Notes: generated by a model from the letters alone, not told the origin. A DNA stretch of 64,000 bases from Patescibacteria group bacterium (GCA_041671125.1 JBAZCA010000001.1:136120-200119); one strand, 5' to 3'. Positions 8,316 to 64,000 are shown, numbered from the stretch's first letter. A program made the numbers and translations.

Positions 8316-8331
8316 ATCGTAAAGTTAGTAA

Positions 8332-9695: not shown

Positions 9696-10379
9696 TCATT
9701 GCGCGCCGAGCTTTTCCCGCTCCAAATACCCGATCACTTCTTCAAAATTTTCCGCCGTGAAATCCGCCTTGTCTATCACGCTTTTCCGCCCCGCATTTTC
9801 GGTAAAAACGATGAATTTATCGGCCGCGCCGGATTCTTTCATTTCGTAATCAGTCCAGCCGTCGCCGATAGCGTATATCCCGCCTTTAAGGCCGAGCGCT
9901 TTAAGCTGTTTTATTTTTCCTCCGGTCTGGGAAAGAAAATTAGACTGGTCGTAGCCGGTGATATTCCCCTCCTTGTCAAAAATAAATGTATTAGCCCGGC
10001 AATTTTCCGGCCTGAGTCCGAGTTCGCGGGCGACGGGCATAACATAATCGTTAAAGCCGCCGGAGAAAACAAAAATATTTTCGGCGCGTTCTTTTAAATA
10101 TCCGCGGTTGCGCCAAAAAGATTCGGTAATATGGCCGCGAAGTATTGTAATGAATTCATCCAGTTCTTTTTTCCCAGCTTTCAGTATTGCCATGCGGCGT
10201 TTAAGCGATTCTCCGAAGTTTAACTTCCCTTCCATGCCGAGATTGGTGATTTCCGAAAACTCTCGCATAATTTTTTCCCGCTCCGGATTATTTTTCAGGG
10301 TCAGAAAAAATAACTCATCCAGACATTCAATCTGAACCAGGGTGCTGTCAAAATCAATAATGAGATATTTGTTCGGCAT
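9696..10379 (-). CDS. serB: Phosphoserine phosphatase (HAD superfamily)
   Basis: DFDSTL (DxDxT) nucleophile motif and a GDGWTD motif. It is the last gene of a serA-serC-serB arrangement. Confidence 0.75.
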   Translation of the reverse strand: MPNKYLIIDFDSTLVQIECLDELFFLTLKNNPEREKIMREFSEITNLGMEGKLNFGESLKRRMAILKAGKKELDEFITILRGHITESFWRNRGYLKERAENIFVFSGGFNDYVMPVARELGLRPENCRANTFIFDKEGNITGYDQSNFLSQTGGKIKQLKALGLKGGIYAIGDGWTDYEMKESGAADKFIVFTENAGRKSVIDKADFTAENFEEVIGYLEREKLGAQ

Positions 10380-10402
10380 GTTATCGCGTCCTTAATTACA
10401 GC

Positions 10403-11491: not shown

Positions 11492-11528
11492 AACGGTTTA
11501 TGCTATTAGTAAATGATTTCTATAAAGA

Positions 11529-11715
11529 GATGCGAGCATTGAAAAATTTTGGAAAAATCATGAGCGTGGAAAGCGTGTAAAATTCCACTGTTTGAGCGAA
11601 CCCGCCGAATCGGCGGGGAGCGAGTTTGGAATTTTACTAGCTTTCATAGCGAATGATCCAAAATTTTTCCTGCTCGCGATTTTTGCGCCACTTTTTCTAA
11701 AAAAGTGGCAAAAAT
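11529..11715 (+). repeat. Family B structured element (about 185 bp), copy 1
   Basis: gatgcgagcattgaaaaatttt...cccgccgaatcggcgggg...aaaatttttcctgctcgc...gccactttttctaaaaaagtggc. Nested inverted repeats plus a 3' hairpin. Lies between serC and serA. Confidence 0.8.
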
Positions 11716-11736
11716 ATTTAAATACAAAATACATTA

Positions 11737-12678
11737 TCACATATTCACACTCCCAGCTTTTCTGCCTTCGGCCATAAACCGGCAGACTTTCTCGCTCGTT
11801 GACAGCGCGATATCAACCTGAGCTTCTTCGGTTGAAGCGCCGATATGCGGGGTTAAAATTACGTTCGGAAGACCCTGTAATTCACATTCCATTTTTTCAT
11901 CGTTAGTTTTCGGCTCATTAGCGTAAACGTCAATTGCCGCTCCGGCTAAATGCCCGGATTTTAAAGCTGAGGCCAAAGCGCTCATATCAACAACGTTTCC
12001 CCGGCTTAAATTAATTAAATAACTTCCCGGTTTCATTAAAGCGATTTTTTCCGCGTTTATTAAATTCGGGGCCGAGGCATGGAGCGATACAACGTCCGCC
12101 TCTGCTAAAAGCTCTTCCAGGGTTTTCATCTTTTTCGCCCTGCCCATTGCCAACTTATCAAAAACGTCAAAAAATATAACTTTCATGCCGAGCGCTTCGG
12201 CTAAAACCGAAAGTTGGGAGCCAATATTGCCATAACCTACTATGCCCAAAGTTTTTCCCCGGACTTCATAAGAACCTTTGGCGCTTTTTTTCCAGTCTCC
12301 GGCGTGCATCTCCCGGTTCCGGTCGCCGATTTTACGGAGCAAACTAATAATAAAACCAATAGCCAGTTCGGCCACGCTTCTCGTAGAAGAAAAAGGCGCG
12401 TTAAAAACGCAGACTCCGGCCGAAGTACAGGCGGCGAGATCCACCTTATTCAAGCCGATAACATATCCGCCGATGACTTTGAGGTTTTTTGCGGCCGCGA
12501 GAACTTCCGCGTCAATTTCAGTCTTAGAGCGGATGCCGAGCACTTCCACGTCTTTGATTTTTTCTTTAAGTTCATCTTTTGGCAGAGTGCCTTTAATTAA
12601 CTCTACCTGAAAATCGCGCTCTTCATAATACTTTTTCGCGAGCTCGCTTATACCCTCTAAAAGCAATACTTTTGGCAT
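11737..12678 (-). CDS. serA: D-3-phosphoglycerate dehydrogenase (short form, no ACT domain)
   Basis: 2-hydroxyacid dehydrogenase with GIVGYGNIGSQ NAD motif. Context is with serC and serB. Confidence 0.85.
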   Translation of the reverse strand: MPKVLLLEGISELAKKYYEERDFQVELIKGTLPKDELKEKIKDVEVLGIRSKTEIDAEVLAAAKNLKVIGGYVIGLNKVDLAACTSAGVCVFNAPFSSTRSVAELAIGFIISLLRKIGDRNREMHAGDWKKSAKGSYEVRGKTLGIVGYGNIGSQLSVLAEALGMKVIFFDVFDKLAMGRAKKMKTLEELLAEADVVSLHASAPNLINAEKIALMKPGSYLINLSRGNVVDMSALASALKSGHLAGAAIDVYANEPKTNDEKMECELQGLPNVILTPHIGASTEEAQVDIALSTSEKVCRFMAEGRKAGSVNM

Positions 12679-12722
12679 AAATTTTATGTTCGCTAATTAA
12701 TAAATGTTAAGTTTAAATTACG

Positions 12723-13054
12723 TTGTCATCTCAACCTTAGCGCAACAGAGAGTCATATTTCTTCTGTCATCCTGAGCGTAGCGAAGGATCTGCGGATGCG
12801 TTTCATATATTCACTTTTTATAACGCGCCACCGATTCTTTCTCATACTCTTCAACCTCTTTTTTATTTATCCCGTAATCCTTAAATAACCCCTCGCTTAA
12901 ATCCAGTAAATTTAAAAATGACTGCGGCAAACGACAACCATCTTTATTTAAACCCTTAGATACTTATTTACGTTCGCAGATCCTTCGTCCCGAATATTCG
13001 GGACTCAGGATGACAAAATAAAAAAGGATTTCTCTCTCGCGCTTAGAATGACAG
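12723..13054. repeat. Family C palindromic repeats (tgtcatcctgagcg...ggatgaca), composite copy
   Basis: Left arm tgtcatcctgagcgtagcgaaggatctgcg (12765-12794). Right arm cgcagatccttcg...actcaggatgaca (12974-13014). About 180 bp lies between the arms, with additional half-sites at both ends. Confidence 0.75.
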
Positions 13055-13171
13055 AAAAAGAGGATAATAAAAGACAGCCAAATTTGGAAACCGGGAGCGT
13101 TTCCATTGGTCAGAGGTAGTACAATTCACTCTGCCAATACTAGTAAGGAAACACTCCCGGAACGACGAGGA

Positions 13172-13285
13172 CTAGTCGTCTGGACATTCGTCCTCGTCAT
13201 CAGGGGGATCGTCAATAATATCCCCCTCATACTCATAACGACCCTCTTCCAGAGAGTCGCCTCTGTCATCTAGCCCGTAGCCCAT
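13172..13285 (-). CDS. Candidate 37-aa highly acidic small protein
   Basis: Own translation: MGYGLDDRGDSLEEGRYEYEGDIIDDPPDDEDECPDD. Preceded by GGAGAGGAGGTG and 7 nt, then ATG. Too short for the ORF track. Confidence 0.35.
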   Translation of the reverse strand: MGYGLDDRGDSLEEGRYEYEGDIIDDPPDDEDECPDD

Positions 13286-13422
13286 AATATCACCTCCTCT
13301 CCGCCGGAGCTACACGGCAAAAAATAAAACGAACACGAAACCAGGAACTAAACCATGATTCATATTTACTTCCCGCTTTCCTATCCACTGAACCTTTTTA
13401 AAGAACAAAATTATTAAAAATG

Positions 13423-13607
13423 GATGCGAGCATTGAAAAATTTCGGGCGTATCACGAGCGTAGAAAGTGTGCAAAATTCCACTGTTTGAGGACCCGCCGA
13501 ATCGGCGGGGACGAGTTTGGAATTTTGCTAGCTTTCATAGTGAGTGATCCGAAATTTTTCAATGCTCGCGATTTTTGCGCCACTTTTTCTAAAAAAGTGG
13601 CAAAAAT
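13423..13607 (+). repeat. Family B structured element, copy 2
   Basis: Near-identical by eye to 40121-40304. The listed ORF 13420..13713 is a translation of this repeat. Confidence 0.8.
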
Positions 13608-13630
13608 TTTAACGCAACCTTATACATCTT

Positions 13631-14524
13631 TCAACCAAATAGCGTCGTACTTAAATATTTTTCCCCTCTATCCGGAAAGATCGTTACTATGTTTCCTTTA
13701 TCAATCTTTTTAGCGATTTTTAAGGCCGCGAGCAGGGCGGCGCCGGACGACATGCCGACAAAAATTCCCTCTTCGCTAATAATCCGCCGGGACATGGCAA
13801 AGGCTTCTTCGGTGTCAATCATAATAACGTCATCCAGTTTTTCGCGATTATAAATTTCTGGGATAATCGCTTCTTCCATGTTTTTTAAACCCTGAATATA
13901 ATGGCCGCGCACCGGTTCAGCCGAGACTATTTTCACCGCCGGATTTTTCTTTTTTAAATACGCTCCGATGCCCATGAGCGTTCCCGAAGTGCCAAGGGCG
14001 GCGGTAAAATAATCAACCTTGCCATTAAGGTCGCGCCAGATTTCCCGGGCGGTAGTTTCGTAATGGGCGATCTTATTATACTCATTGGAAAACTGGTTCG
14101 GGTTAAAATACTTTTCCGGATTTTCCGCTAATAGCTCCCGGACTTTCATTATAGCCCCGTCCGTGCCTTTTGTCTTCTCCGTCAAAGTAACTTTGGCGCC
14201 AAAGGCCTTAATCATTTTAATCCGTTCAGGCGAGACCGCCGCGCTCATCACTATTTCCACGCCGTAGCCGCGCGCCGCGCCGATCATGGCGAGGGCGATT
14301 CCGGTATTGCCGGACGTCGCTTCAATAATGGTTTTACCTTTGGTTAATTTTCCCTCCTTTACGCCCTGCTCCACCATTTTCAGGGCAATCCGGTCTTTTA
14401 TGCTTCCACCCGGATTAACGCCTTCAATTTTCGCGTAAATATTCACGCCCTTTTTCGTATTCAGCTTGTTGATCTTTACCATCGGCGTCCGGCCGATTGT
14501 TTCCAGTATATTATTATAAATCAT
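13631..14524 (-). CDS. cysK: Cysteine synthase (O-acetylserine sulfhydrylase)
   Basis: IGRTPMVKINKL...NPGGSIKDRIA carries the PLP-lysine motif, plus the SGNTG loop. Confidence 0.85.
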   Translation of the reverse strand: MIYNNILETIGRTPMVKINKLNTKKGVNIYAKIEGVNPGGSIKDRIALKMVEQGVKEGKLTKGKTIIEATSGNTGIALAMIGAARGYGVEIVMSAAVSPERIKMIKAFGAKVTLTEKTKGTDGAIMKVRELLAENPEKYFNPNQFSNEYNKIAHYETTAREIWRDLNGKVDYFTAALGTSGTLMGIGAYLKKKNPAVKIVSAEPVRGHYIQGLKNMEEAIIPEIYNREKLDDVIMIDTEEAFAMSRRIISEEGIFVGMSSGAALLAALKIAKKIDKGNIVTIFPDRGEKYLSTTLFG

Positions 14525-14535
14525 ATAAATAAAAT

Positions 14536-14557
14536 CCGTCCCTTTTGAGGACGGTTT
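14536..14557 (-). terminator. Attenuator terminator 11 nt upstream of cysK ATG
   Basis: Minus strand reads CCGUCCU-CAAAA-GGGACGG followed by AUUUUAUUUAU, then ATG. Its 5' half AAACCGUCCUC can instead pair with GAGGAUGGUUU (14621-14631). Confidence 0.65.
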
Positions 14558-14600
14558 CTTTTTTACAGTCTGCTATTCATGGGATTTTTGACTTTCAGGC

Positions 14601-14699
14601 TTAGACTTTTGACTCGTGGGAAACCATCCTCAAAACCGGCTTGCTACCCGAGCCGCCGCACCCGCCTGAAAGAGACATTTTGAAGATGGATATGTTCAT
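14601..14699 (-). CDS. Candidate leader peptide, Ser/Gly/Cys-rich (32 aa)
   Basis: MNISIFKMSLSGGCGGSGSKPVLRMVSHESKV, verified codon by codon. The ATG lies 6 nt after the -10 box, so it looks leaderless. Confidence 0.55.
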   Translation of the reverse strand: MNISIFKMSLSGGCGGSGSKPVLRMVSHESKV

Positions 14700-14705
14700 A
14701 GTTAT

Positions 14706-14734
14706 ATGCTAAATAATTTTCGCCCGAGTGTCAA
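14706..14734 (-). promoter_or_regulatory. Sigma70-like promoter of the cysK leader
   Basis: Minus strand reads TTGACA (14729-14734), 17 nt spacer, TAGCAT (14706-14711), 6 nt, ATG. Confidence 0.6.
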
Positions 14735-14789
14735 TAGCGCCGAGCGTGTGAGCGAGGCGTCCCGCAGCCGTCAGGCGTGCGGGGCTGTC

Positions 14790-15410
14790 TTAAATAAGTG
14801 ATCCGAGTAAATCATCAACCGTATAACTCTTATCCATCTGCTCGTAATAATCAATCGTCGTATCCGCCAGTTTTTCGTAAAGCCCGGTCCGATAAGCTAA
14901 AAGCGCCGGATAGCATCTTTTTAGAGCCGCGACCTCTTTCTCGCCGGCCAAAGGCTTATACGCTTCACCCCAGATTATCGGCTTCGGGTTGTCAAAATAC
15001 TGTTTAATTTTTTTCTCAATTACTTCTTTCGGCGTATTAAAATAAACTACTTTGGTCAGTTTTTTCATTCTTAGGAGTAGTTCGCCGGACAGGTAAATAA
15101 CGCTCCCGGTCGTGTCAATAACAATATTTTCGCTTATTCCATTTTCCGCGGCATCCAGCGCTTCTTTTAGGTTTTTAGCTTCAAGTTCCAGATATTTCCC
15201 GCTGTTTTCCGGGCATCTCTCGTCATAAGGCTGTCCGAGCCAGCGGCTCATGTCTTTAATTCCCGAATATCCGAGTTCTTCCAGTTCCGGGCCGAGCGCT
15301 TTCTCAATCATGTCGTCAATGCCAAACCTTTTAAAGCCTTTTTCTTTTTTAAGCTTCTCCGACCAGTAAGATTTCCCTACTCCGGCCATGCCGATTAAAG
15401 AGATAAACAT
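14790..15410 (-). CDS. P-loop kinase, shikimate-kinase-like fold; function uncertain
   Basis: Walker A GMAGVGKS. DTTGSVIY aligns with the STGGGVI of shikimate kinases. It lies immediately downstream of thrC, and a separate aroK exists at 28534. Confidence 0.55.
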   Translation of the reverse strand: MFISLIGMAGVGKSYWSEKLKKEKGFKRFGIDDMIEKALGPELEELGYSGIKDMSRWLGQPYDERCPENSGKYLELEAKNLKEALDAAENGISENIVIDTTGSVIYLSGELLLRMKKLTKVVYFNTPKEVIEKKIKQYFDNPKPIIWGEAYKPLAGEKEVAALKRCYPALLAYRTGLYEKLADTTIDYYEQMDKSYTVDDLLGSLI

Positions 15411-15422
15411 AATTTTATGTAA

Positions 15423-16781
15423 TTACAAATTCCCAAGCGCTTTTTTCAACTCCTCATAATTATTTTTAATACTGATTTTCCGCTTCTCTTTCTGCTTTAG
15501 CTTTTTTATTTCTTCCGAATCATCAACGTAAATCCCGGTGTTTTCCTTAATCACGTCAGCGAACTTTAAAGGCGAGGCTGTGGAAAAAACAACTTTAGTA
15601 AGTCCGTTCTCGCCTTCCTTTTCCGCTCCGGCGAACGCCACGGCCGTGTGGGGATCAAGGAGATAATTATATTTTTCATAAACTTTTTTTATGGTTTCGG
15701 CCGTTTCCTTGTCATCCACTCTTTCCGCTTTTATCACTTTGCGGAATTCATCCGGGTTATCATGGAAAACTTTTTGGATGCGGATGAAGTTGCTCGGGTT
15801 GCCGATGTCCATGGCGTTAGAAAGGGTCGCCACCGTCGCCCGCGGCTTAAACTCTCCGGTTTCGTAATATTTTTTCGCCGCGTCATTGGCGTTGGTAACC
15901 GCTAAAAACCGGCTAAAAGGAAATCCCATTTCCCGGGCAAAAACTCCGGCGCAAAGGTTGCCGTAGTTGCCGCAAGGCACGACAAATTCCACCCCCTCTT
16001 GGTCTCCCCCTTTTAAAGGGGGAGATATTTTTTGTCCCGCCCGTTTCCTCCCTCTTTCTAAGGGGGAGGTTAGGAGGGGGTAGAGTTGCGAATAAACATA
16101 AGCGTAATAAACCATCTGCGGCAATAGCCGGCCGACGCTTATGGAATTAGCGGCCGTAAGGTTTAACGCGGCTAAATCCGGGTCATTAAACGCCTGCTTG
16201 GCGAACGCCTGGCAATCGTCAAAAACGCCTTCAACTTCAATAGTCGCAACATTCGGCTCCACCCTGGTCAACTGCTCTTCCTGCAGTTTGGAAACCATGC
16301 CCTTAGGATAAAGGATTACTACTTTCACGTTCGGAACCCCGCCAAGGCCGTGCGCCACGGCGCCGCCGGTATCACCGGAAGTGGCAACGAGAATCGTCGC
16401 GGTTTTTTTCTCTTTTTCAAGGATCCGGCTCATGAACCGCGCGAGAACCCGCGCCGCCACGTCTTTAAACGCGAGCGTCGGGCCATGAAACAATTCAAGA
16501 ACATAATAATCCCCGATCTTTATTAAAGGCAGGGGAAAATTTAAAGCCTCTTCCATCATCACCCGAAGTTCTCCCTCGCTAAAATCGTCGCCTACCCATT
16601 TTAAAAGCGTTTGCGTTGCGACCTCAGTCAAATCCTTTCCTTTTAAATTTTCCAGTTCTTCTTCGGAAAATTTCGGAAAAAATTCGGGAAAATAAAGCCC
16701 GCCGTCCGGCGCGAGGCTCTTTAACATGGCTTCTTTAAAATTAACGGCCGGTGATTTACCGTTTAAGCTAAAAAATTTCAT
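15423..16781 (-). CDS. thrC: Threonine synthase (long type) carrying an in-frame family D repeat insertion
   Basis: The N-terminus GGLYFPEFFP, HGPTLAFKD (PLP lysine) and SGDTGGA are ThrC motifs. The segment LLTSPLERGRKRAGQKISPPLKGGDQEG is encoded by the repeat at 15989-16084. Confidence 0.9.
   Translation of the reverse strand: MKFFSLNGKSPAVNFKEAMLKSLAPDGGLYFPEFFPKFSEEELENLKGKDLTEVATQTLLKWVGDDFSEGELRVMMEEALNFPLPLIKIGDYYVLELFHGPTLAFKDVAARVLARFMSRILEKEKKTATILVATSGDTGGAVAHGLGGVPNVKVVILYPKGMVSKLQEEQLTRVEPNVATIEVEGVFDDCQAFAKQAFNDPDLAALNLTAANSISVGRLLPQMVYYAYVYSQLYPLLTSPLERGRKRAGQKISPPLKGGDQEGVEFVVPCGNYGNLCAGVFAREMGFPFSRFLAVTNANDAAKKYYETGEFKPRATVATLSNAMDIGNPSNFIRIQKVFHDNPDEFRKVIKAERVDDKETAETIKKVYEKYNYLLDPHTAVAFAGAEKEGENGLTKVVFSTASPLKFADVIKENTGIYVDDSEEIKKLKQKEKRKISIKNNYEELKKALGNL
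15989..16084. repeat. Family D palindromic element inside the thrC coding sequence
   Basis: ccaccccctcttggtctcccccttttaaaggggga...tcctccctctttctaagggggaggttaggagggggtag. The reading frame is maintained. Confidence 0.8.
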
Positions 16782-50394: not shown

Positions 50395-50446
50395 GAGGGG
50401 GTTGTTTTTCCTCCCCCTTACCAAGGGGGAGGCTAGGAGGGGGTTG
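50363..50446. repeat. Perfect tandem duplication of a 42 bp family D unit
   Basis: tttttcctcccccttaccaagggggaggctaggagggggttg occurs at 50363-50404 and again at 50405-50446. It contains the leuCD stop codon (TAG at 50392-50394). Confidence 0.85.
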
Positions 50447-50448
50447 TG

Positions 50449-50868
50449 ATGACCAGAATCTTTAATCTAAAAGCTAAAAAAGAAATCAGGAAAAAGCTTA
50501 GAGCGCAGACTCATGTTGTCAGCTGTGAAAAACTACTTTGGTATAAATTAAGAAAATCTCAGTTAAATTATAAATTCAGAAGGCAACACGGAATCGGAAA
50601 TTACGTAGTTGATTTCTACTGCCCCCGACTAAAGATAGTAATTGAAGTTGATGGCGCCACCCATTCAAGTGACAGGGAAATTCAGTATGATAATTTAAGA
50701 GAAAATTATTTAAAGAGTTTAGGATTAGTCGTGAAGAGATATTTTAATCACGATATTAAATATAGCTTGGGCGCTGTGTTAAGCGATATAAATGAAACTT
50801 GCTTAAAACGAGTTAATCAGCACAAACCCCTCCCTAACCCTCCCCTTCTTAAGGGGAGGGGAAAATTT
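50449..50868 (+). CDS. DUF559 (Vsr-like endonuclease fold) domain ORF with no stop codon before leuB
   Basis: EKLLWYKLRKSQLNYKFRRQHGIGNYVVDFYCPRLKIVIEVDGATH is the DUF559 signature. It is flanked by inverted family D arms and runs in frame into the leuB ATG at 50869. Confidence 0.7.
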
Positions 50869-52056
50869 ATGCTTAAAAAAACAATCGCTCTCGTCCCTGG
50901 CGACGGCTCGGGTCCGGAGATGATGCGGGAAGCTTGCGCGATAGTAGCCGAGGCGGCTAAAAAAGATAATATTAAAATTGAATTCGTAAATACCCCCATG
51001 GGCTGGAATGCTTACCATGAGTTTGGCGATACCCTGCCCGGGGAGTCTTTTAAAAAGGCCGTTAAAATCGGGACGATTTTTTTCGGCGGCGTCGGCGACC
51101 CGGAATTTGACCTGACTATTGGCAAAGAAAAACCGGAGATGATGCCTGAAGCCCGGGCGCTTTTAGCGCTCCGTAAAACCATGGGCCTATTATTGAACTT
51201 CCGGCCAATGGTCTTTTATAAAACCCTGGACCATTTAGCTAATGTTAAGCCGGAAAACATCCCCGAAGAAGGCGTTAAGCAATACTGGATCCGGTTTCTT
51301 CTTGAAGACAGCTATTTCGGCAATATTGACTTTCAGCCCGAGGCTGATCCGCCTTTGGCGAAAAATATCAGCTTCCGCGAAGAAATAAGAAAGAAAATCG
51401 GACTTAAATTAAAACAAGATGTAACGATTGATGATGAAATTATTACTGATCTGGCTTATTATAAAAAATCCACGCTGGAAAAATATTTCCGCGCCTGCTT
51501 TTCTTACGCCCGCGAATTAAACCTCCCGCTCATCTCCGTTGACAAAGCCAATGTCATGGCTCGCCACGATTTTTGGCGGAAAATCGCGACGAAAATCGGC
51601 GCCGAAGAATTTCCGGACGTGAAATTAATCCATCAGCTCGTTGACTCGGCCAATTCAATGCTTTTCACGCCGGCGAAATTAAACGCTGTTATTGCCTGCG
51701 GAAATGAGCACGGCGACATTCTTTCCGACGGCGCGGCCGCGGCTTTAGGTAGTATGGGGCTTATGTGCTCTTCATCAATTAACCCGGAAACGAACGCCGG
51801 ACTTTTTGAATCCGGCGCCGGAACCGCTCCGACTTTAAAAGGCGCGGACAAGGCTAATCCGCTCGGCCGGATTTTAACCGGAGCGCTTATGCTAAGACAT
51901 ATTGGCGCGAAAGTCGGCGCCGAAGCCATAGAAAAAGCCGTCAACCAGGTTTTGCGCGACGGCTACCGCACAGGAGACCTCTTTACCAAAAACGATGACG
52001 CCTCTAAACTGCTCGGCACGTCGGGAATGGGAGAGAAAGTTTTTAGCTGCTTGTAA
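50869..52056 (+). CDS. leuB: 3-isopropylmalate dehydrogenase
   Basis: IALVPGDGSGPEMM, LNFRP and GDILSDGAAALGSMGL are isocitrate/isopropylmalate dehydrogenase motifs. Context is with leuCD and leuA. Confidence 0.85.
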   Translation: MLKKTIALVPGDGSGPEMMREACAIVAEAAKKDNIKIEFVNTPMGWNAYHEFGDTLPGESFKKAVKIGTIFFGGVGDPEFDLTIGKEKPEMMPEARALLALRKTMGLLLNFRPMVFYKTLDHLANVKPENIPEEGVKQYWIRFLLEDSYFGNIDFQPEADPPLAKNISFREEIRKKIGLKLKQDVTIDDEIITDLAYYKKSTLEKYFRACFSYARELNLPLISVDKANVMARHDFWRKIATKIGAEEFPDVKLIHQLVDSANSMLFTPAKLNAVIACGNEHGDILSDGAAAALGSMGLMCSSSINPETNAGLFESGAGTAPTLKGADKANPLGRILTGALMLRHIGAKVGAEAIEKAVNQVLRDGYRTGDLFTKNDDASKLLGTSGMGEKVFSCL

Positions 52057-56650: not shown

Positions 56651-56689
56651 AAATAGAATTTTTAATTTTTATAATTTTTAATTTTTAAA
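56651..56689. repeat. Family E arm flanking the four-helix-bundle gene (left)
   Basis: aatagaatttttaatttttataatttttaatttttaaatt is an approximate reverse complement of 57035-57073. Confidence 0.7.
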
Positions 56690-57034
56690 TTATGCATCAC
56701 AACTTTTAGATATTTTGGCAAAAATCAATGTTAATTCATGAGATTCTTTCCATAATTTTCTGCATCGGTCTTTTTCTTCGGGAATAGCAATAGCTATCAT
56801 TCTCAGCCAATGTTTAGTTTCATTGGCTTCTTTTTGGCAAATTTTTATTTTATTTCGGAAATCTTTCTTCGAGCTTGCCTGATTTGCCTCCATATAATTC
56901 GCCCCGATACTAGTCGCCGATCTTATGAATTGATTTATGAGTGACCGGTTTACTTCATTTTTCTTAACTTTCAAACAAAAATAAACAGCATCTTCTCCAT
57001 ATTTTGCGGTCCTTTCCTCTAAATCGTACCGCAT
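56690..57034 (-). CDS. Four-helix-bundle protein (23S rRNA intervening-sequence protein family)
   Basis: LINQFIRSATSIGANYMEANQASSKKDFRNKIKICQKEANETKHWL matches the family signature QLxRSxxSIxANIxEG...KDF...E. Confidence 0.8.
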   Translation of the reverse strand: MRYDLEERTAKYGEDAVYFCLKVKKNEVNRSLINQFIRSATSIGANYMEANQASSKKDFRNKIKICQKEANETKHWLRMIAIAIPEEKDRCRKLWKESHELTLIFAKISKSCDA

Positions 57035-57073
57035 ACAATCATTAAAAATTTAAAAATTATAAAATTAAAAATT
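57035..57073. repeat. Family E arm flanking the four-helix-bundle gene (right)
   Basis: caatcattaaaaatttaaaaattataaaattaaaaattc. Confidence 0.7.
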
Positions 57074-57535
57074 CTATCTGATGTATTTCTCCACTTTTTC
57101 AACGATTTGCGCCGGAGTAAGGTCGGCTTTAACGACGTAATCCGAAGCGCCCATTTTTTTTCCTTTTTCTATGTCTTCGGTCGTGCCGAGGTTGGTCATG
57201 ATAATAACCGGCGTGTCTTTCATCCCGGGAGCGGCCTTAATTTCGGCTAAAACCGAAAAACCGTCAACCATCGGCATCATGATATCCAATAAAATCAAAT
57301 CCGGCTTTTCTTTTTTCGCGAGCAAAAGGCCCTCGTTGCCGTCGCTCGCCGTAAGGGCGATAAATCCATGATCTTCAAGCTTCATCTTATACATGCCCGA
57401 GATCATCGTATCGTCTTCAATTATCAGCACCTTTTTTTTACTACTCCCTTTCTTGCTTTCCCCGCTTTTTTCTTTTATTTCGTCTTTTTTGTTTTTAGGC
57501 ATAAACTTAGTAAACAGTAAATAGTAAACAGACAA
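57074..57535 (-). CDS. Stand-alone response regulator receiver (CheY-like) protein
   Basis: VLIIEDD, DLILLDIMMPMVDG (phospho-acceptor Asp) and IIMTN...K motifs. No output domain. Confidence 0.85.
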   Translation of the reverse strand: MSVYYLLFTKFMPKNKKDEIKEKSGESKKGSSKKKVLIIEDDTMISGMYKMKLEDHGFIALTASDGNEGLLLAKKEKPDLILLDIMMPMVDGFSVLAEIKAAPGMKDTPVIIMTNLGTTEDIEKGKKMGASDYVVKADLTPAQIVEKVEKYIR

Positions 57536-57603
57536 CAGTAAGCAGTAAAAATAAAATCTATTTACTGTTTACTATTGTCTATTTACTTCTTATCATATCA
57601 GCC

Positions 57604-58146
57604 TTATCTTAAAATTTCAACCCTTGCCCCGTCGCTTACAATCTTTATCGTTCCCGCCTCGTCGGTCCGGAAAACTTTTGCTCCGGCGCGCTCCAGCTTT
57701 TTTATCGTCCTTAAACTCGGATGCCCGAATTGGTTATCCTTTCCCACCTCAATTACCGCAATCTCCGGCTTAACTGCTTTTAAAAAATCCTCGCTGGTAG
57801 CCGTGTCCGATCCGTGGTGTCCAATTTTCAATACATCGGCGGATAAGTCAACCCCGCTTTCTAGTATTTCCTTTTCTTCTTCTCTCTCAGCGTCGCCGGT
57901 AAATGAAAAACTGGTATTGCCATATACCAGCCTCGCGACGATTGAAGTATTATTTAAGTTTTCAACTTCTTTATTCAAAAAACTTTCAAGGGGATAAAGT
58001 ATTTCAAGCCGGCAGTTGTCGCCGAGCTTAATCGTCTGCGGCCGGTCAATGATTACCATTGGAATTTTTTTGTCCCGGACAACTTCCAGCCAGGCAATAT
58101 AGTTCGGGCTGTCATGGTTAACGCCGGTGTAAAGAATTTTCTCCAC
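57604..58146 (-). pseudogene. Displaced 3' portion of the ComEC-like MBL-fold gene (attachment-site remnant)
   Basis: The 180 aa product aligns by eye with residues about 108-285 of the 63045..63902 product, with most positions identical. It lacks the N-terminal TM segment and the HxHxDH motif. Confidence 0.7.
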
Positions 58147-58147
58147 C

Positions 58148-59779
58148 TTAAATCTTTCTAAAACGTTTATCAGACCGGTAACATGTATGATATGAACAAT
58201 GTTTTATATCCTCGTCAGTTTTATCTGATATCTCTACTATCGGAAAATAACCAATTATCGTTATTCTATCCTTTAAAAATACGATTTTCTTAATAATCTG
58301 CTGAAGAAAAAATCTTTTTTGTTTTTGGTCTAATGTCCTGGCCTTTTTCTTAGCCGTCTGGCAATACCTACCGATATTTTCGTTTATTTCTTTCCTCTTG
58401 TCCAGTAGCTCAATCTTTGTCTTTGCTTCTCCCAGTCTATTATTAAGCCCCTCGGCTTGATCATCCAGTTCTTCAATTTTCATTTGGTAATTATCCCGGT
58501 CAACCAGTCCGTCGGAATATAAATCCAATAATTTCATTTTTCTTTTGTTGATGTTTTCAATTTGAGCATTTAATGAGTTAATCGCGACTTCTAACTTCCG
58601 TCGGCTTTCGCTTTTTTTATCCCGCAGTATATCAATATACTTTTTTATTATGCTTGGCTGTAAAACCTTTTTAATAACTACATCCCAAACCGCATTTTCC
58701 AAATCTTCTCCAAAAACATAATAATTATCGCATTTTTGCTTTATTACTTCCGGAATATGACTAGAATTTTTTTCCCGATAATTGCATTTATAAACACGTT
58801 TCTTAGTATTCCAGACCGCTCCGGTATAAGTATGGTCGCAAATACCGCATTTTATCAAGCCGCTCAAAAGGTATTTCTCATCAGTTCCCCGATTCATTCT
58901 TTGATTTCTCTTTATTTTTTCCTGGACTCTATTAAAAAGCTCCTCGCTAATTATAGCCGGTATAGGGACGGGTATCCATTCGCTTTCATCTCTCGGCCGG
59001 GTTTTAGTCTTCCTGTTTCTGGCATATCTCGTATTTTTATTATCGCTTTCAATTCTTTCAGCCCGGTTGAAGTAATGCAAGCCGAAATAACTGGTATTTT
59101 TCAATATCCGGCTAATTGAACTTCTGCCCCAAAAATAATTGCCTTGAGCGGTTTTGATTTTTCTTTTTTCAAGGAATTTTATCAGCCCGGTAATGCTAGT
59201 GTCTGTGTTGGCGTAAGTTTCATAAATTAGCCGGACTACTTCGGCGTGTTCCTCATTTATTTTATAATAGCCGTCTGTCTTATCCGTCCTCTTGATATAT
59301 GAATAGCCGAACAACTGACCGCCATCCACGATCTTGCCCCGCCGGGCTTTCTCTTTCCGCCCCCTCATCAGCCTTTCAACTATTTTTGCCTTTTCTAATT
59401 CATTAACCGCTCCCATTACCGTCAAGGTAAATTTATTTTCCGGGTTGTCAATGTAGTTTTTGCCCCTGATTATAATTTTCTTTCCGTATTTCAACAGTTC
59501 GGAGATAATAATATTTTGATAGGTAGAGTCTCTCGCAATCCGGTCAGAGTCTAAAAAATATACCACATCAAAAAGATTGGTTTTTACATCATTTCTTAAC
59601 TCGTCAAGCGCCGGGCGATCCAGCCTTGTTCCAGACCAGCCGTTGTCCGAATACTCCCGGATGAGAATATTGCCGTCTTTTTTGATTTGTTGGATGAGTT
59701 CGCTTTTTTGGCTTTCTATCGTTCCCCGCTCTTCTTGCAAGGACGTGCTCACCCGGGCATAATACACAGCTTTTTCCAT
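58148..59779 (-). CDS. Large serine recombinase (integrase)
   Basis: AVYYARVSTSLQ (catalytic Ser), a resolvase domain, a recombinase domain, a zinc ribbon (CGICDH...YKC) and a coiled coil. Start placed at MEKAVYY. Confidence 0.9.
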   Translation of the reverse strand: MEKAVYYARVSTSLQEERGTIESQKSELIQQIKKDGNILIREYSDNGWSGTRLDRPALDELRNDVKTNLFDVVYFLDSDRIARDSTYQNIIISELLKYGKKIIIRGKNYIDNPENKFTLTVMGAVNELEKAKIVERLMRGRKEKARRGKIVDGGQLFGYSYIKRTDKTDGYYKINEEHAEVVRLIYETYANTDTSITGLIKFLEKRKIKTAQGNYFWGRSSISRILKNTSYFGLHYFNRAERIESDNKNTRYARNRKTKTRPRDESEWIPVPIPAIISEELFNRVQEKIKRNQRMNRGTDEKYLLSGLIKCGICDHTYTGAVWNTKKRVYKCNYREKNSSHIPEVIKQKCDNYYVFGEDLENAVWDVVIKKVLQPSIIKKYIDILRDKKSESRRKLEVAINSLNAQIENINKRKMKLLDLYSDGLVDRDNYQMKIEELDDQAEGLNNRLGEAKTKIELLDKRKEINENIGRYCQTAKKKARTLDQKQKRFFLQQIIKKIVFLKDRITIIGYFPIVEISDKTDEDIKHCSYHTCYRSDKRFRKI

Positions 59780-59849
59780 ACATTTTTTACCACTTATAAA
59801 CATTCCTAAATCGGCAGTTTTTACCAAAGAGAATTAATCAATTTTTATT

Positions 59850-60029
59850 TTAAAGCTTAAAAAATATTTTACTTTTTTCAGCGCTAAAATTTTCCCAAAA
59901 ATCAAGAACCCGCCAATTATGCCCAACCTTGACCGCTTTAAGCCGACCGGAAGCAATCAGCCGATAAACAGATTTCGGCGATATCCTTAGCAACTCGGCT
60001 ACCTCTTTGATAGTAAGAATTTTTTCCAT
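59850..60029 (-). CDS. Excisionase/MerR-type helix-turn-helix protein (59 aa)
   Basis: Own translation: MEKILTIKEVAELLRISPKSVYRLIASGRLKAVKVGHNWRVLDFWENF... This is the typical excisionase-family HTH pattern. One residue below the ORF-track cut-off. Confidence 0.6.
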   Translation of the reverse strand: MEKILTIKEVAELLRISPKSVYRLIASGRLKAVKVGHNWRVLDFWENFSAEKSKIFFKL

Positions 60030-60285
60030 AAGTTTGCTAACTTTAGCTAAATTATGGTTTTATTATATTCCACCAGTCTAGCTTGTAAATAGCTTCCTAT
60101 CTTGTCCCTTTCTGGCCATATCCATTTACTAGCTAAACTTAACCCTGAAAACGTCCCGGTTGGCGAACTATGCCATTAAGGTAATTTCCATTAAAAACCA
60201 AACCGGAACGCTCTCAGGGAAAAAACAGGGTCAATCCGAGCCATTATTGAACACCTCAAGGATCTACTTTTTAAAAACCGAGGTC

Positions 60286-60624
60286 TTAGAAGCCCCCTCT
60301 ATTAATCCGTTCAATAACTCCCGCTTTTCTTCGGAGGCGTAATCCTTCAGGGTCAACCCGCTTGAAGGCGGAAAAGACCTCTTTTCTGGAAAAAGGCAGG
60401 TTATTGCCCTTGACGACATTTAAGATGAACGTCAAGAGGGCTATATCTCGCCAATCCGAACAGCGGTCTTGTTTCCTTAATCGGCGAAAGATAGTTCTAA
60501 CTCGCCTACCTTGCCTCCGGGAATTTAGAATAAATTTAACAATCTCGCCAAAATAACCGTTATCAAGGCTAATACCAAATTTACGTTTTTTCTTTTTGAT
60601 AATCATAATATTGCTGGCCTTCAA
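60286..60624 (-). CDS. Hypothetical basic protein (element-encoded)
   Basis: 112 aa ORF, Arg/Lys-rich. No family recognised. Confidence 0.35.
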   Translation of the reverse strand: MKASNIMIIKKKKRKFGISLDNGYFGEIVKFILNSRRQGRRVRTIFRRLRKQDRCSDWRDIALLTFILNVVKGNNLPFSRKEVFSAFKRVDPEGLRLRRKAGVIERINRGGF

Positions 60625-60658
60625 AAAAACGGAGCTCTCGTTTTTCTAAATCACCAAA

Positions 60659-61492
60659 TTATTTATTAAATGACTTTAAAATATCCTCTAAACTCTGTTC
60701 TTTATAAACTACCCCCTCCAAAAATGACGGCGTGGGATGTATCTTGGAAAGTGGCGGGGGCTTGATTCCTTTTTTGTAGTTCTGATAGACTGTCCAGACG
60801 TAAGCCGCCATGTTCTTAATTTTTTCATGCTTGGGATGAGCGACTTGGCATAACTTGCTTTTTGAAAACCAGCCATAATCACTATCCTCCGAGATAACTT
60901 TTGCCTGCCGCTCATTTAAACCGTAATATTTGACCAAAAATTCATAAAAGCTTTGGTAATTTTTAATCTTTGAAAATCTATCAATATGTTTATTGATATT
61001 GTTTTTATTATCAGCATTATTAGTATTATTAGAGAGCGGAATATCAACCGATTTCTTAATGTTTTTGCCACTTTTCCCTTCCTCGTTGTTCCCTTCATGT
61101 TCCCTCGTAATTTTGTCCGAGTCCTTTCCTTTTCTCGGCTTCCGAGTATTTTTTTGATATGCCGACCAATTCTTAATCGTAATCAGCCTCTCTTTATTGG
61201 TAGTCTTTTGAATAATCATCCCGACCTTTTCAAATAACCTCAGGTTCCGGTGAATATTGCTTTCCGGAATATCGCATAACTCGGATAAAAATTTTCTGGT
61301 CGTTACCACCTGACCGGAGCCGACTGTGCACTCACCACCGCCAAAATAGGTCTTATATCCCCTATGAGCTACTATGAGCAGGAGCTTTGTCCATAAACAC
61401 CAAGAGTCTTTATTCCGATTAATTATCGGGTTGGCAAGGGATTTCCGGTAATACGAAATCCATCCGATGTATTTAGTGTTTATGTCTTTCAT
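60659..61492 (-). CDS. Putative replication/DNA-binding protein (N-terminal winged-helix-like)
   Basis: 277 aa. The N-terminal region ...VVTTRKFLSELCDIPESNIHRNLRLFEKVGMI resembles the wHTH of phage/plasmid replication organisers. This assignment is tentative. Confidence 0.4.
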   Translation of the reverse strand: MKDINTKYIGWISYYRKSLANPIINRNKDSWCLWTKLLLIVAHRGYKTYFGGGECTVGSGQVVTTRKFLSELCDIPESNIHRNLRLFEKVGMIIQKTTNKERLITIKNWSAYQKNTRKPRKGKDSDKITREHEGNNEEGKSGKNIKKSVDIPLSNNTNNADNKNNINKHIDRFSKIKNYQSFYEFLVKYYGLNERQAKVISEDSDYGWFSKSKLCQVAHPKHEKIKNMAAYVWTVYQNYKKGIKPPPLSKIHPTPSFLEGVVYKEQSLEDILKSFNK

Positions 61493-61512
61493 AAAATTTT
61501 ATTTATTATTAG

Positions 61513-61716
61513 CTACTTTTTTTCAAATTGGTCGTCCTCGCCCGACTCTAATAAAAATCTGACCGCTTCAAACAGCCTCCGCTCCGCATCGGTGGCTTCA
61601 TCCGCGCGGACAGGCCGTATTTTAATATTGAATTTTTTTCGCTTATTTTTTTCATACATAAAAGGCCCGGAACTTTTCAGTTGGGCCTTTGATATAAAAC
61701 GAGTAGGCTCAACCAA
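61513..61716 (-). CDS. Hypothetical small protein (element-encoded)
   Basis: 67 aa ORF, co-oriented with the other element genes. Confidence 0.3.
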   Translation of the reverse strand: MVEPTRFISKAQLKSSGPFMYEKNKRKKFNIKIRPVRADEATDAERRLFEAVRFLLESGEDDQFEKK

Positions 61717-61997
61717 AAAAATGAAGATATGAATCCCCTACTACATCGTTCAATACTTCACTTTTTGGCTGAAAGCCTTCTATAATTCTGGATTACGAAC
61801 CGATCTTAACGTCAGTCCGTGGCTTTTCAGTTTAATACATTTTTCAATTATTTAATTGTCCTTACATTTTACACCCGATAGCAATAAATGTCAAGGATTT
61901 TTTGGCTAATATTAGTTATAAACTCTTACAAACAATACCGTTTTATTCGTTATGTTAGCTTAAAAAAATTTCCAAAAATACAACTTTATCACAACCT

Positions 61998-62180
61998 TTA
62001 ATCCTTCAGCCCGTCTAACTCAAGTTCACTTTCTTCTGCCGCTGGAATTTTTGTCTCAAGAATAAAACCGGTTATAATTTCACCGTAAAGTCGTTGCTTC
62101 TCGTCATTGGTTAATTTCCTGTTCAACCGCATTTCCATTTTCCATTTTTTTTCTTTAAAAATTATTTCGTCCTGCTTCAT
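61998..62180 (-). CDS. Hypothetical small protein (element-encoded)
   Basis: 60 aa ORF, 6 nt downstream of the preceding gene. Confidence 0.3.
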   Translation of the reverse strand: MKQDEIIFKEKKWKMEMRLNRKLTNDEKQRLYGEIITGFILETKIPAAEESELELDGLKD

Positions 62181-62186
62181 ACTTTC

Positions 62187-62783
62187 TTAAAATGATAAGT
62201 CTTCATATTTATCGGTTATCCTGCCTGCCCCGGTCTGAACTACCCGTCCGCTCTGAATAACTTCATAAGTAAATCTGTTTATCCCGGCACTACCATGGAC
62301 TGAAGTCGGCCCGGTGCTTAGTTCCGAATATACGATAGTCCCCAAACCCGGGGCAATGGCCTTGCTCGTATCAAAGGTGTCATCCCAAATATCCCTATTC
62401 TCCATACTTATCAGTTTTATTTTTACTGATCCGGTAAAATCTTCTTTTCCCTTATTCCGAATGTCAAAGAAAAACCTGTGCTTACCGGCAACCTTTTTGA
62501 CGATTTGATTAGTCACCTCAATATTAGTTGAATTGGCCTCTATTGCCGCAGGTGCGTTTGAACCAGTATCAACAACCGGAGTAACGCTCGGAGCCTGACT
62601 GCCATTATCCATTTCTTCACTCATAACTGAGATAAAAACGGGAACAAACATAACTACCAATAAAAGTGCTAAAATCGGGTGCTTGCCAAAAAATCCCCTA
62701 ATATCCGAATGACAATGGGGGCACTTGGTCGCTTTTTTATCCACCTGCTCCCTACACTTGGGACAAATTTTTCCGTCTGACAT
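62187..62783 (-). CDS. Zinc-ribbon membrane protein (element-encoded)
   Basis: CPKCREQVDKKATKCPHCHSD zinc ribbon, a TM helix (HPILALLLVVMFVPVFISV), then an extracytoplasmic domain of about 130 aa. Confidence 0.5.
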   Translation of the reverse strand: MSDGKICPKCREQVDKKATKCPHCHSDIRGFFGKHPILALLLVVMFVPVFISVMSEEMDNGSQAPSVTPVVDTGSNAPAAIEANSTNIEVTNQIVKKVAGKHRFFFDIRNKGKEDFTGSVKIKLISMENRDIWDDTFDTSKAIAPGLGTIVYSELSTGPTSVHGSAGINRFTYEVIQSGRVVQTGAGRITDKYEDLSF

Positions 62784-63044
62784 AGCGTTGCGTCATTTTA
62801 GGCAAATTAGATTCGCTTAAAATGATATTAATTTTTACCTGGCCGGAAAACAAAAAGCTCCCCGCCAGCGATAACCATTTCTGGTCATCCATATCCCTTT
62901 CGGAATATGGCCAACCAAGGCATTCTGACGAGGAGTCATTTACCTTGGTTGGACTTTGTGCCATGCCTCAAGCATTAAAATGATTGAAGTTTAGGCTTAA
63001 ATTGTTATTCTAATATTAAAACTTTTTTAAACATTTGTAAACAT

Positions 63045-63902
63045 TCATCTCTGGCTAATAACTGACCCGTTACTAATAAACCTTATAGTGCCCTTTTCAT
63101 CCGTTCTGAAAATATCAGCTTTAATCCGTTCCAACTTTTTTATCGTCCTTAAAGAAGGATGGCCGAAATCATTATCTTTCCCAACTTCAATTACTGCAAT
63201 TTCCGGACTCACCGCTTTTAAAAATTCTTCCCCGGTTGCAGTATCCGAACCGTGGTGTCCAATTTTCAATACATCGGCGGATAAGTCAACCCCGCTTTCT
63301 AGTATTTCCTTTTCTTCCGGCTCTTCAGCGTCGCCCGTAAATAAAAAACTGGTATTGCCATATACCAGCTTCGCGACGATTGAAGTATTATTCAAATTCT
63401 CAACCTCTTTATTTAAAAAACTTTCAAGGGGATAAAGTATTTCCAGCCGGCAGTAGTCCCCGAGCTTAATCGTCTGAGGCCGATCAATGATTATCATGGG
63501 TATTTTTTTCTCTTTAACCGCCTCGAGCCAGGCAATATAATTCGGGCTGTCATGGTTAACTCCGGTATATAAAATTTTTTTTACATCAAACCTGTTTATT
63601 ACTTGGACCAAACCGCTAACGTGGTCATCGTGAGGATGGCTTAATATCATCAAATCAATCTGCTTGTCCCAAGGCGGCAAGACTTCCGACAACCGTTCAA
63701 CCACCCGGGAATTCGGCCCACCATCAATGAGAATATTTTGACCGTCCGGTGCTTCTATTAGTATAGAGTCCCCTTGACCTACATCCAAGAAATCAACTTC
63801 TAACTTTCTTTCAGGGTTATAAAATACCTTGAAAGAAAATACCAAAATAGCAAAAAGAAAAATGCCAATAAGTAAAAACAATTTAAAAAACTTTTTTTGC
63901 AT
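63045..63902 (-). CDS. MBL-fold metallo-hydrolase, ComEC/Rec2 C-terminal-domain-like
   Basis: N-terminal TM helix, DVGQGDS and HPHDDHVSG (HxHxDH) motifs. The 3' ~540 bp appears to be supplied by the integrated element. Confidence 0.85.
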   Translation of the reverse strand: MQKKFFKLFLLIGIFLFAILVFSFKVFYNPERKLEVDFLDVGQGDSILIEAPDGQNILIDGGPNSRVVERLSEVLPPWDKQIDLMILSHPHDDHVSGLVQVINRFDVKKILYTGVNHDSPNYIAWLEAVKEKKIPMIIIDRPQTIKLGDYCRLEILYPLESFLNKEVENLNNTSIVAKLVYGNTSFLFTGDAEEPEEKEILESGVDLSADVLKIGHHGSDTATGEEFLKAVSPEIAVIEVGKDNDFGHPSLRTIKKLERIKADIFRTDEKGTIRFISNGSVISQR

Positions 63903-64000
63903 TTAAGAATTGAATATATCGATTGTTGCTTGCATATCCAACTGATATTTATTTCTAAATAATTTATACCACCAATCAGGAATTAACGGGCTATTTTCTC

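Follow-up and report, generated by a model that had tools for sequence, protein, structure and literature searches.

A 64,000-nt stretch of DNA from an uncultured Patescibacteria group bacterium (GCA_041671125.1 JBAZCA010000001.1:136120-200119; hereafter the window) contains the greater part of a mobile element that has inserted into, and split, a gene for a ComEC-like protein. We favor, at a probability of roughly 0.78, the reading that this is one integrative, plasmid-like element of ~7.64 kb that encodes a large serine recombinase (LSR), that interrupts a host gene for a ComEC-type metallo-β-lactamase (MBL) protein, and that brings with it both a spare copy of this target gene and a cargo of CBASS (cyclic oligonucleotide-based antiphage signaling system) defence genes.

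The window truncates the element, and as a result the remainder of the CBASS genes, the left attachment site (attL) and the host 5′ fragment fall outside it. We therefore used as source contig an 87-kb ENA contig (ERZ27249449 k141_224736; hereafter L001) that bears identical proteins. L001 corresponds to the minus strand of the window, and a window coordinate is converted by subtracting it from 73903. Past the end of the window, L001 continues with the remainder of an S_4TM gene (9128-10000), then a SMODS cyclase gene (8240-9121) and then a 5′ fragment of the MBL gene (7796-8086). The features on which the argument turns are as follows.

63045..63902, minus strand: element-borne full MBL gene, 285 aa, of the ComEC-C-terminal type with an N-terminal transmembrane (TM) helix
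57604..58183, minus strand: displaced 3′ remnant of the host MBL gene, corresponding to codons 96-286 after reconstruction and forming the B′ side of attR
58148..59827, minus strand: LSR gene, 559 aa from a TTG start
58160..58209, minus strand: right attachment site attR (P arm plus B′ arm), with CA at 58185-58184, the core CATGT at 58185-58181 and a 13-mer at 58203-58191
L001 ~8050-8105, outside the window: attL, with the inverted copy of the 13-mer at 8082-8094
63600..63645, minus strand: internal attB-like sequence inside the element MBL copy, ..CCTCACGATGAC-CA-CGTTAGCGGTTTGG.., centre 63623-63622

In a self-comparison of L001, the host 5′ fragment matches the element gene up to 8079 (aligned with 10284) and the host 3′ fragment matches it from 15718 (aligned with 10280), and thus both host fragments break at one gene position, a single CATGT within the HPHDDH-V codons. 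The 5′ fragment, which lies 1.9 kb past the window end, encodes 96 aa and ends ..DLMILSHPHDDHV-L-stop (..SHPHDDHV-L-stop). When L001 7796-8079 is joined at CATGT to the 3′ part, an in-frame open reading frame (ORF) of 286 aa results, which is colinear with the 285-aa gene and with P0121, an intact homologue on a 3.5-kb JGI contig (L010). Neither host fragment contains a stop codon or frameshift. P0121 is the closest intact homologue of the reconstructed gene (81% aa identity), and the same response-regulator gene follows it directly; indeed, the host 3′ fragment is 82.7% identical in nucleotides to the L010 gene, and the match continues into that response-regulator gene.

Two relatives reveal the insertion by what they lack. 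The blastn alignment of L010 with L001 skips from 8079 to 15718. On a second contig from the same metagenome, that of the co-occurring relative L181, a giant protein, an intact MBL gene, a response regulator and NDK stand in this order with the same neighbours as on L001, and the alignment of the two contigs (82% identity) halts exactly at 8079 and restarts after 15745. These gaps mark the DNA between L001 8080 and 15717 as an insertion. The element accordingly spans ~7.64 kb (L001 8077-15718), of which the right 5.8 kb are inside the window (58185-64000), and its order is attL, CBASS cyclase, 4TM effector, full MBL copy, Zn-ribbon protein, small ORFs, DnaD-like initiator, HTH_17 protein, LSR and attR. 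The original prediction, made from the window sequence, had already proposed an LSR element inside a ComEC-like MBL gene, and had taken the truncated copy and the response-regulator gene on its 3′ side to be host DNA. The in-frame joining of the split fragments, the uninterrupted genes of L010 and L181, and the presence of the response-regulator gene in the same order at L010 all bear this out.

Two similar MBL copies in direct orientation might also be the product of an ancient tandem duplication unrelated to the recombinase, or of a chimeric assembly. We consider this extremely improbable. L010, L181 and a third contig, L012, each have a single MBL gene followed by the response regulator (and by NDK as well in L181 and L012) with no second copy, which is the opposite of the tandem MBL genes without a recombinase that the original prediction had named as the finding that would overturn it. 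Moreover, the extra DNA is bounded by attachment features of the LSR type, and the identical integrated arrangement was assembled independently in four assemblies, namely ENA, two JGI contigs (one of them also an NCBI metagenome-assembled genome, or MAG) and Logan.

The two MBL copies of the window form a direct repeat with a spacing of 5438 nt and share 84.3% nt identity over 498 nt (E=8.6e-155; blastn on the source contig). The truncated ORF (58146..57604, minus strand) is 180 aa long and corresponds to the final 180 codons of the 285-aa gene, across which the proteins are 83.8% identical, with the non-synonymous differences clustered in codons 261-286. The original prediction had thus correctly described a full and a 5′-truncated copy on the minus strand, about 85% aa identity between them, and differences concentrated near the C-terminus. 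Its limits of similarity, 58140 and 63588, were drawn too short: a weaker match extends ~40 nt further, up to 58185/63623, and in this extension the MBL frame of the truncated copy still yields ..HVTGLINVLERFKVEK.. The final 36 nt of the recombinase ORF, which uses a different frame, overlap with it.

The element MBL copy is a separate, complete ORF with its own ATG, which abuts the stop codon of S_4TM; it lies downstream of the CBASS genes and 1.9 kb from attL. In the protein database, nothing is more similar to it than the host's own gene as reconstructed (77.5% aa identity), and the first 95 codons of the copy are 65% identical in nucleotides to the host 5′ fragment. Because the host 5′ fragment is located upstream of the CBASS genes, the first 95 codons of the full gene do not belong to the host DNA, and the 285-aa “full-length” MBL gene is wholly element-borne, including its own start and these 95 codons. 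The copy retains the HPHDDH, TGD, HHGS and GHP motifs. Both MBL proteins match the ComEC_Rec2 model TIGR00361 at positions 417-663, which is the C-terminal nuclease domain only, and both have one N-terminal TM helix. For the 285-aa protein the match is 1.1e-40; its score of 139.5 bits is under the cutoff of 190 and covers only the last third of the model. ComEC chains in PDB are matched at 4.5e-36 (chain 30bt residues 514-789). The 285-aa protein has a single N-terminal TM helix in place of the polytopic channel domain and OB-fold that characterize ComEC/Rec2. Both proteins are best classified as ComEC-like and not as ComEC.

The attachment sites provide a second line of evidence for the extent of the element. 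Exactly two copies of a 13-nt P-arm repeat, AACATTGTTCATA, are present in 20.9 kb of L001, at 15700-15712 (+) and 8082-8094 (-). The two copies are perfect and inverted, each is 5 nt from the CA of attL or attR, and two or more matches were obtained in 0/100 shuffles; the window itself holds the attR copy only (58191-58203). Joining the recombinase end to the left end reconstructs an attP of ~50 bp, ..TAAAACATTGTTCATATCA-TA[CA]TG-TGTTATGAACAATGTTATA.. (60-mer: GATATAAAACATTGTTCATATCATACATGTGTTATGAACAATGTTATACCAATTAGG), whose arms agree at 17/19 positions. The corresponding attB is ..CCTCACGATGAC[CA]TGTTACCGGTCTGATAAACG.. (60-mer: TTATCGCACCCTCACGATGACCATGTTACCGGTCTGATAAACGTTTTAG). Only CATGT is common to both junctions, which fits a serine integrase that acts without target duplication, and the symmetry of the sites suggests that CA is the central dinucleotide. 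In silico, these putative sites thus display the inverted half-sites around a dinucleotide, the lack of a duplication and the small number of shared bases that are typical of LSR attachment sites.

The recombinase itself has the expected domains, with Pfam matches to Resolvase (PF00239, 1e-25), Recombinase (PF07508, 1.2e-19) and Zn_ribbon_recom (PF13408, 3.4e-13) and a PHROG integrase match of 6e-103. It contains a YARVS motif, and R25, S27, D95, R96 and R99 are invariant in a 23-sequence alignment (A2), as are the zinc-ribbon residues C327, C330, C348 and C366. Its true start is likely the ATG at 59779, as NCBI calls it, which gives a protein of 543 aa (MEKAVYYARVST). In the integrated form, the last 10 codons of the gene (YRSDKRFRKI) are host-derived DNA. 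In-silico circularisation of the element instead yields an LSR of 550 aa that ends ..HCSYHTC-VMNNVIPIRFEIVEKIK (..IRFEIVEKIK). The attP site is located inside the 3′ end of the LSR gene, within its last ~20 codons, and integration consequently swaps the tail of the enzyme, with ~17 final residues being exchanged.

The same tail can be recognized in related recombinases. The left ends of relatives inserted in comM encode, in frame with their own recombinases, ..GVKFEIVRNLT (L007) and ..VVRFEIIEKLR (L100), and the left end of L097, where automatic core-finding chose an out-of-frame core, encodes ..VRFEV.. in one of three frames. The recombinases P0009, P0013 and P0028 have native ends of the form ..V(I/M)(R/K)FEI.. 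Of these, P0013 is encoded on a 6.9-kb molecule (L091) whose two ends are bridged by an independent contig (L092), which indicates a free circle or a tandem form. Because the conserved tail is encoded at the left end, it independently fixes the position of that end, for our element, at L001 8080. Read together, these predicted ends show a conserved tail that the whole LSR clade would lose upon integration.

Homologues of the LSR at 46-60% identity come nearly all from Patescibacteria metagenomes, and those at 48-60% abut either an MBL fragment or comM fragments. When genome contigs were scanned for further members, most hits were distant LSRs of Firmicutes, and no more than four useful loci were obtained. 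The contexts found beside the related recombinases are the following.

L004/L095: an MBL 3′ fragment that starts at the same codon (VSGLIEV..)
L012: the orthologous MBL-response regulator-NDK locus, ~40 codons earlier in the gene
L007, L096-L100, L102, L111, L009/L101 and L011: a comM/Mg-chelatase fragment
L094: a plasmid-like context

On L012 (489-3884), a second LSR lineage (P0030, 48% identical) abuts the MBL-response regulator-NDK locus at ..LIDGG.., so that related recombinases strike this gene at two different positions. The contig L004 (ERZ27315536 k141_512132), the closest sibling that targets MBL, carries two different LSR genes ~10 kb apart (1-759 and 10001-11623) with DnaB and DUF5659 genes between them, and these may be tandem elements at one site. 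Outside this group, the similarity of the LSR to recombinases of the phage and plasmid collections is at most 32% identity. The highest-ranked phage LSR (INPHARED) is that of Wolbachia phage WO, with 29.5% identity at 94% coverage, and the nearest solved LSRs are SPbeta YokA and A118 (E ~1e-14 to 1e-7). No second comM copy occurs in the three complete comM-inserted elements (7.2-9.3 kb), which makes the spare target gene peculiar to the present element among those inspected.

The original prediction had drawn a smaller element of 5.4 kb (window ~58147-63588), which would have brought only a diverged 3′ half of the target gene that is now fused to the 5′ half of the host. The 5438-nt repeat is consistent with such a unit, as is the recombinase adjacent to the truncated copy, and the internal site at 63622-63623 occurs at the exact attachment position of the gene. 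Nevertheless, we regard this history as very improbable, since it is contradicted by the source contig: the host 5′ fragment is found upstream of the CBASS genes, where it ends in V-L-stop at attL, and the copy that was to have been fused to it is separate, with first 95 codons that resemble the host fragment at only 65% of nucleotides. If the recombinase end is joined to the point where the element MBL 3′ part begins, no symmetric, inverted-repeat attP arises, and the recombinase ORF stops at once (TGT TAG), which also speaks against a 5.4-kb element. It is at L001 8080, and not at 10284, that the second 13-mer arm and the conserved tail occur, and no target-gene fragment was found within any of the four related elements that can be read end to end (L007, L097, L100 and L091). 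In comparison with the host attB, the internal site (..GATGACCACGTTAGCGGTTTGG..) has an identical left 14 nt and a diverged right arm. Position 63622-63623 is an internal attB-like site and not a junction. Of the two junctions first proposed, attR beside the recombinase holds, and attL at ~63588 has to be moved to the true left end at L001 8077-8080.

Comparison of the host gene with its counterpart on L181 reveals a mosaic structure. Their identity is 84% up to the attachment-site core and 66% after it, and flanks on both sides are 82-85% identical. The maximum chi-square breakpoint between the two is at gene nt 285, close to the CA at nt 280-281, and its score was reached in 0/500 permutations. 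We also counted parsimony-informative sites in the quartet formed by the host gene, the element copy, L010 and L181, with the following result.

5′ part: host+L181 10 sites, host+L010 3, host+element 5
3′ part: host+L181 7 sites, host+L010 26, host+element 28

A Fisher test finds the shift between the two parts significant (p=2.6e-4). Sites of the host+L010 class occupy nt 304-459 and 726-821 of the 3′ part, and most host+element sites fall within nt 453-716, a segment with a 68-nt run of identity. This pattern suggests that gene conversion has taken place between the element copy and the displaced 3′ part of the host gene. The breakpoint at the core might mean that the 3′ half was replaced there in one lineage, or perhaps that the host fragments have recombined independently since their separation; four sequences cannot decide between the two. 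Within the same gene, codons 141-168 (window ~63400-63480 and 57960-58040), which encode RLEILYPLESFLNKEVENLNNTSIV, are 88-95% identical in nucleotides among host, element and L010, far above the rest of the gene, yet they are only 61-63% identical to L181. This conservation could reflect exchange between the copies or a constraint at the DNA or RNA level.

Alternatively, tandem or nested elements might be present, consisting of a 2.2-kb unit (CBASS plus MBL 5′ part) and a 5.4-kb unit (MBL 3′ part plus backbone), or perhaps a second copy was once integrated at the internal site and then resolved, which would make the full gene a site-specific chimera. The internal site does retain 14 nt of the B arm plus CA, identity to the host differs between the 5′ part (65%) and the 3′ part (80%) of the copy, and a recombination breakpoint is present at the core in the related L181 gene. 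However, the 2.2-kb unit would have neither recombinase nor replication gene, neither sub-unit would have a symmetric attP, and the maximum chi-square breakpoint between host and element copy is at codon 259 and not at the attachment site. This explanation strikes us as quite unlikely.

For the single 7.64-kb element, we propose that the LSR would recombine its attP of ~50 bp with attB (..CCTCACGATGAC[CA]TGTTACCGGTCTG..) at CA, without target duplication. Integration would replace the conserved LSR tail ..VMNNVIPIRFEIVEKIK by the host-encoded ..YRSDKRFRKI, and precise excision by attL x attR recombination would bring back the unsplit host gene together with the native tail of the LSR. Excision would probably require a directionality factor, for which the HTH_17 protein is a candidate. 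While the host copy is split, the element MBL copy would most likely keep the DNA-uptake nuclease function. The CBASS genes would serve as defence cargo, and the DnaD-like protein would replicate the excised circle.

Excision appears plausible because the host fragments, the LSR and both 13-nt arms are intact. Nonetheless, several observations weigh against the account given here. Neither an excised circle nor an empty site of the same strain was found, and all four members of the 90% cluster of the recombinase (ENA, JGI and NCBI-MAG records) have the integrated-form tail. Because only integrated forms were encountered, the element may be fixed. No intact host allele of more than 81% identity exists among 5.8 billion protein clusters. 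A degenerate 49-nt pattern for attB, attP, attL and attR had 0 matches in the JGI metagenome and IMG/VR collections, although this is a weak negative that says little, given that the pattern missed even attL and attR and both collections hence lack the source organism. The CA dinucleotide was derived from symmetry only, and complementation by the element MBL copy is something that we infer. Finally, the idea that a spare target copy is a family trait had to be rejected for the comM-targeting relatives, which carry none.

Among the contigs with the identical recombinase, one from Logan (L003, 5430 bp) was considered as an excised circle, its length being close to the repeat spacing. It was rejected because it matches an inner part of the integrated form at 100% identity. 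The distance between its ends is 9 nt less than one repeat period of 5438 nt, and we infer that it is bounded by k-mers common to the two MBL copies.

The same anatomy would be expected if the element were an immobilised, domesticated remnant that no longer excises, with the host relying on its MBL copy and CBASS genes. That only integrated forms were found is consistent with this view, and the suggested gene conversion at nt 453-716 would imply long co-residence. Against it, the host fragments have remained without stops or frameshifts and rejoin in frame, and the LSR ORF is still whole, as are its catalytic residues and the two perfect 13-nt arms. We therefore see immobilisation as a possibility to be taken seriously, if a doubtful one.

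The remaining genes of the element are listed below. The minus-strand recombinase, HTH_17 protein, DnaD-like initiator, Zn-ribbon protein and small ORFs were all found where the original prediction had placed an LSR, an Xis-like protein, a Rep-like protein, a zinc-ribbon membrane protein and small ORFs.

59850..60029, minus strand: HTH_17 (excisionase-like) protein, 59 aa; Pfam HTH_17 9.4e-14, PHROG excisionase families ~1e-8
60286..60624, minus strand: ORF of 112 aa, a gene call on the source contig, with no Pfam, PADLOC or PHROG match
60659..61492, minus strand: DnaD-like replication initiator/helicase loader, 277 aa; phrog_2514 8.7e-23, weak Pfam Phage_rep_org_N
61513..62180, minus strand: small ORFs of 67 aa (61716..61513) and 60 aa (62180..61998), with no Pfam or PHROG family matches
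62187..62783, minus strand: Zn-ribbon protein, 198 aa, with an N-terminal zinc ribbon and a hydrophobic segment; weak Pfam Zn_Ribbon_1
63903..64000, minus strand: 3′ end of S_4TM (CBASS 4TM effector), which runs off the window; whole gene at L001 9128-10000
L001 8240-9121, outside the window: SMODS cyclase; PADLOC cyclase 3.7e-117, Pfam SMODS 5e-12

The related elements L004, L007 and L009 likewise have an HTH_17 gene, and the protein encoded here is a candidate recombination directionality factor or regulator. The 4TM effector is matched by PADLOC at 2.8e-60 and by Pfam S_4TM at 6e-80; the cyclase scores 115 with the NCBIfam cyclase model, whose cutoff is 200. With the cyclase beside the effector and no accessory genes of the Cap2/Cap3 type, the pair has the composition of type I CBASS. 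The nearest S_4TM homologues are at most 44% identical. We also considered whether the MBL protein could be part of the CBASS system, and rejected this idea: homologous SMODS/S_4TM pairs have other neighbours, with no MBL gene beside them in the two contigs inspected (42% identical), and the copy is nearest to the host ComEC-type gene.

It is tempting to speculate further on what a spare copy and an exchanged tail might achieve jointly. By bringing an allele of its target with a diverged attachment site, the element could pursue a self-compensating strategy that removes the only good attB of the cell and excludes rivals, and that could also, by LSR action or by homologous recombination among the resident copies, drive replacement of the host 3′ half at the core, for which the drop from 84% to 66% identity of the intact L181 gene within 5 nt of the crossover may be cited. 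The exchange of the LSR tail could, in addition, act as a switch between integrating and excising forms. We think it unlikely that both proposals hold together. If they did, the element would exclude rival elements at no cost to DNA uptake.

Several other features of the region are worth recording. Directly upstream of the host MBL 5′ fragment, L001 1-7726 is occupied by a giant ORF of at least 2975 aa with Laminin_G_3 and Toxin_R_bind_N matches, whose position is kept in L181. Between the stop codon of the MBL gene and the start of the response-regulator gene (window 57508-57592) are three tandem 14-nt units (TAGTAAACAGTAAA) plus inverted copies, including a 17-nt perfect palindrome arm, and at the same intergenic place L010 has a long imperfect palindrome of different sequence. 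This repeat may be a conserved hairpin (a terminator or regulatory RNA) or an operator. At window 56653-57077, between the response-regulator and NDK genes, a 114-aa gene for a “23S rRNA intervening sequence protein” (PF05635; ORF 57034..56690, minus strand) is bracketed by 36-nt AT-rich inverted repeats (56653-56688 and 57042-57077). Because this gene is not in the syntenic L010, L012 and L181 loci, it represents a second small insertion in this genome. Farther away, a 536-aa ORF for 3-isopropylmalate dehydrogenase (leuB; window 50446-52056, plus strand) includes, at residues 23-122, a domain of the DUF559 family (Vsr-like endonuclease). In L181 the syntenic Iso_dh gene encodes 385 aa without DUF559, and in L010 a DUF559 gene stands alone immediately upstream of the MBL gene. 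A mobile endonuclease gene may thus have been fused to, or mis-joined with, leuB.

Several known systems resemble parts of this arrangement. Myxococcus phage Mx8 (intP/intX) and archaeal viruses of the SSV1 type have an attP inside their own integrase gene. As in these systems, integration here alters the integrase ORF, and the free and integrated proteins differ; Mx8 and SSV1 use tyrosine recombinases, whereas the present enzyme is a serine recombinase of which ~17 end residues only are exchanged. A literature text search for “within the integrase gene” combined with serine recombinase terms returned no paper with that phrase and nothing specific on an LSR attP in its own gene. The loss of the LSR tail on integration would be a simple candidate for control of recombination direction.

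Elements that supply a replacement 3′ end for their target, such as those in tRNA genes and e14 and phage 21 in icd, likewise use tyrosine recombinases; their copy begins at the crossover, where it is joined in frame to the 5′ part of the host gene. Target function would be preserved here as it is there, but the copy in the present element is a separate, complete gene. Wolbachia phage WO integrates into a Mg-chelatase gene and can be likened to the comM-targeting relatives described above, although its LSR is only distantly related and comes from a full tailed phage as opposed to a 7-kb plasmid-like element. With type I CBASS systems, the element shares an adjacent cyclase and 4TM effector, which ride here on an LSR element directly upstream of an MBL copy; CBASS defence genes thus travel in Patescibacteria on a 7.6-kb integrative replicon.

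Among serine recombinases, Listeria phi10403S/A118 in comK, SPbeta (SprA/SprB) in spsM and skin in sigK are LSR elements that split a host gene, which precise excision rebuilds (PMC7397523, PMC5499854). Similarly, in-silico excision of the present element restores a 286-aa ORF. Those elements have no copy of the split gene, whose function needs excision, whereas a spare copy is aboard here. Patescibacteria have been reported to be naturally competent, with DNA uptake via comEC and pili, and a mobile element with an intact homologue of the gene that it disrupts bears on the idea that competence is knocked out to avoid curing.

A survey of LSRs in bacterial isolate genomes found target genes to be enriched for DNA competence, with “establishment of competence” as the top-enriched pathway and 12.4% of the site-specific LSRs inserting into Mg-chelatase/comM homologues (Durrant et al. 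2022, PMC10083194). The elements of that survey likewise combine the same enzyme architecture with site-specific insertion inside a coding sequence, and relatives of the present LSR hit comM. What sets the present element apart from that survey is that it comes from a MAG of an uncultured Patescibacteria bacterium, targets a ComEC-type MBL gene that stands alone, has a full diverged copy of this target aboard and places attP in the LSR ORF. Complete and testable attP/attB pairs are now at hand for a new Patescibacteria LSR clade, in which the relatives have distinct targets, namely two MBL positions and comM. LSR elements in competence genes are therefore already known, and the spare target copy and the tail swap are the new features here.

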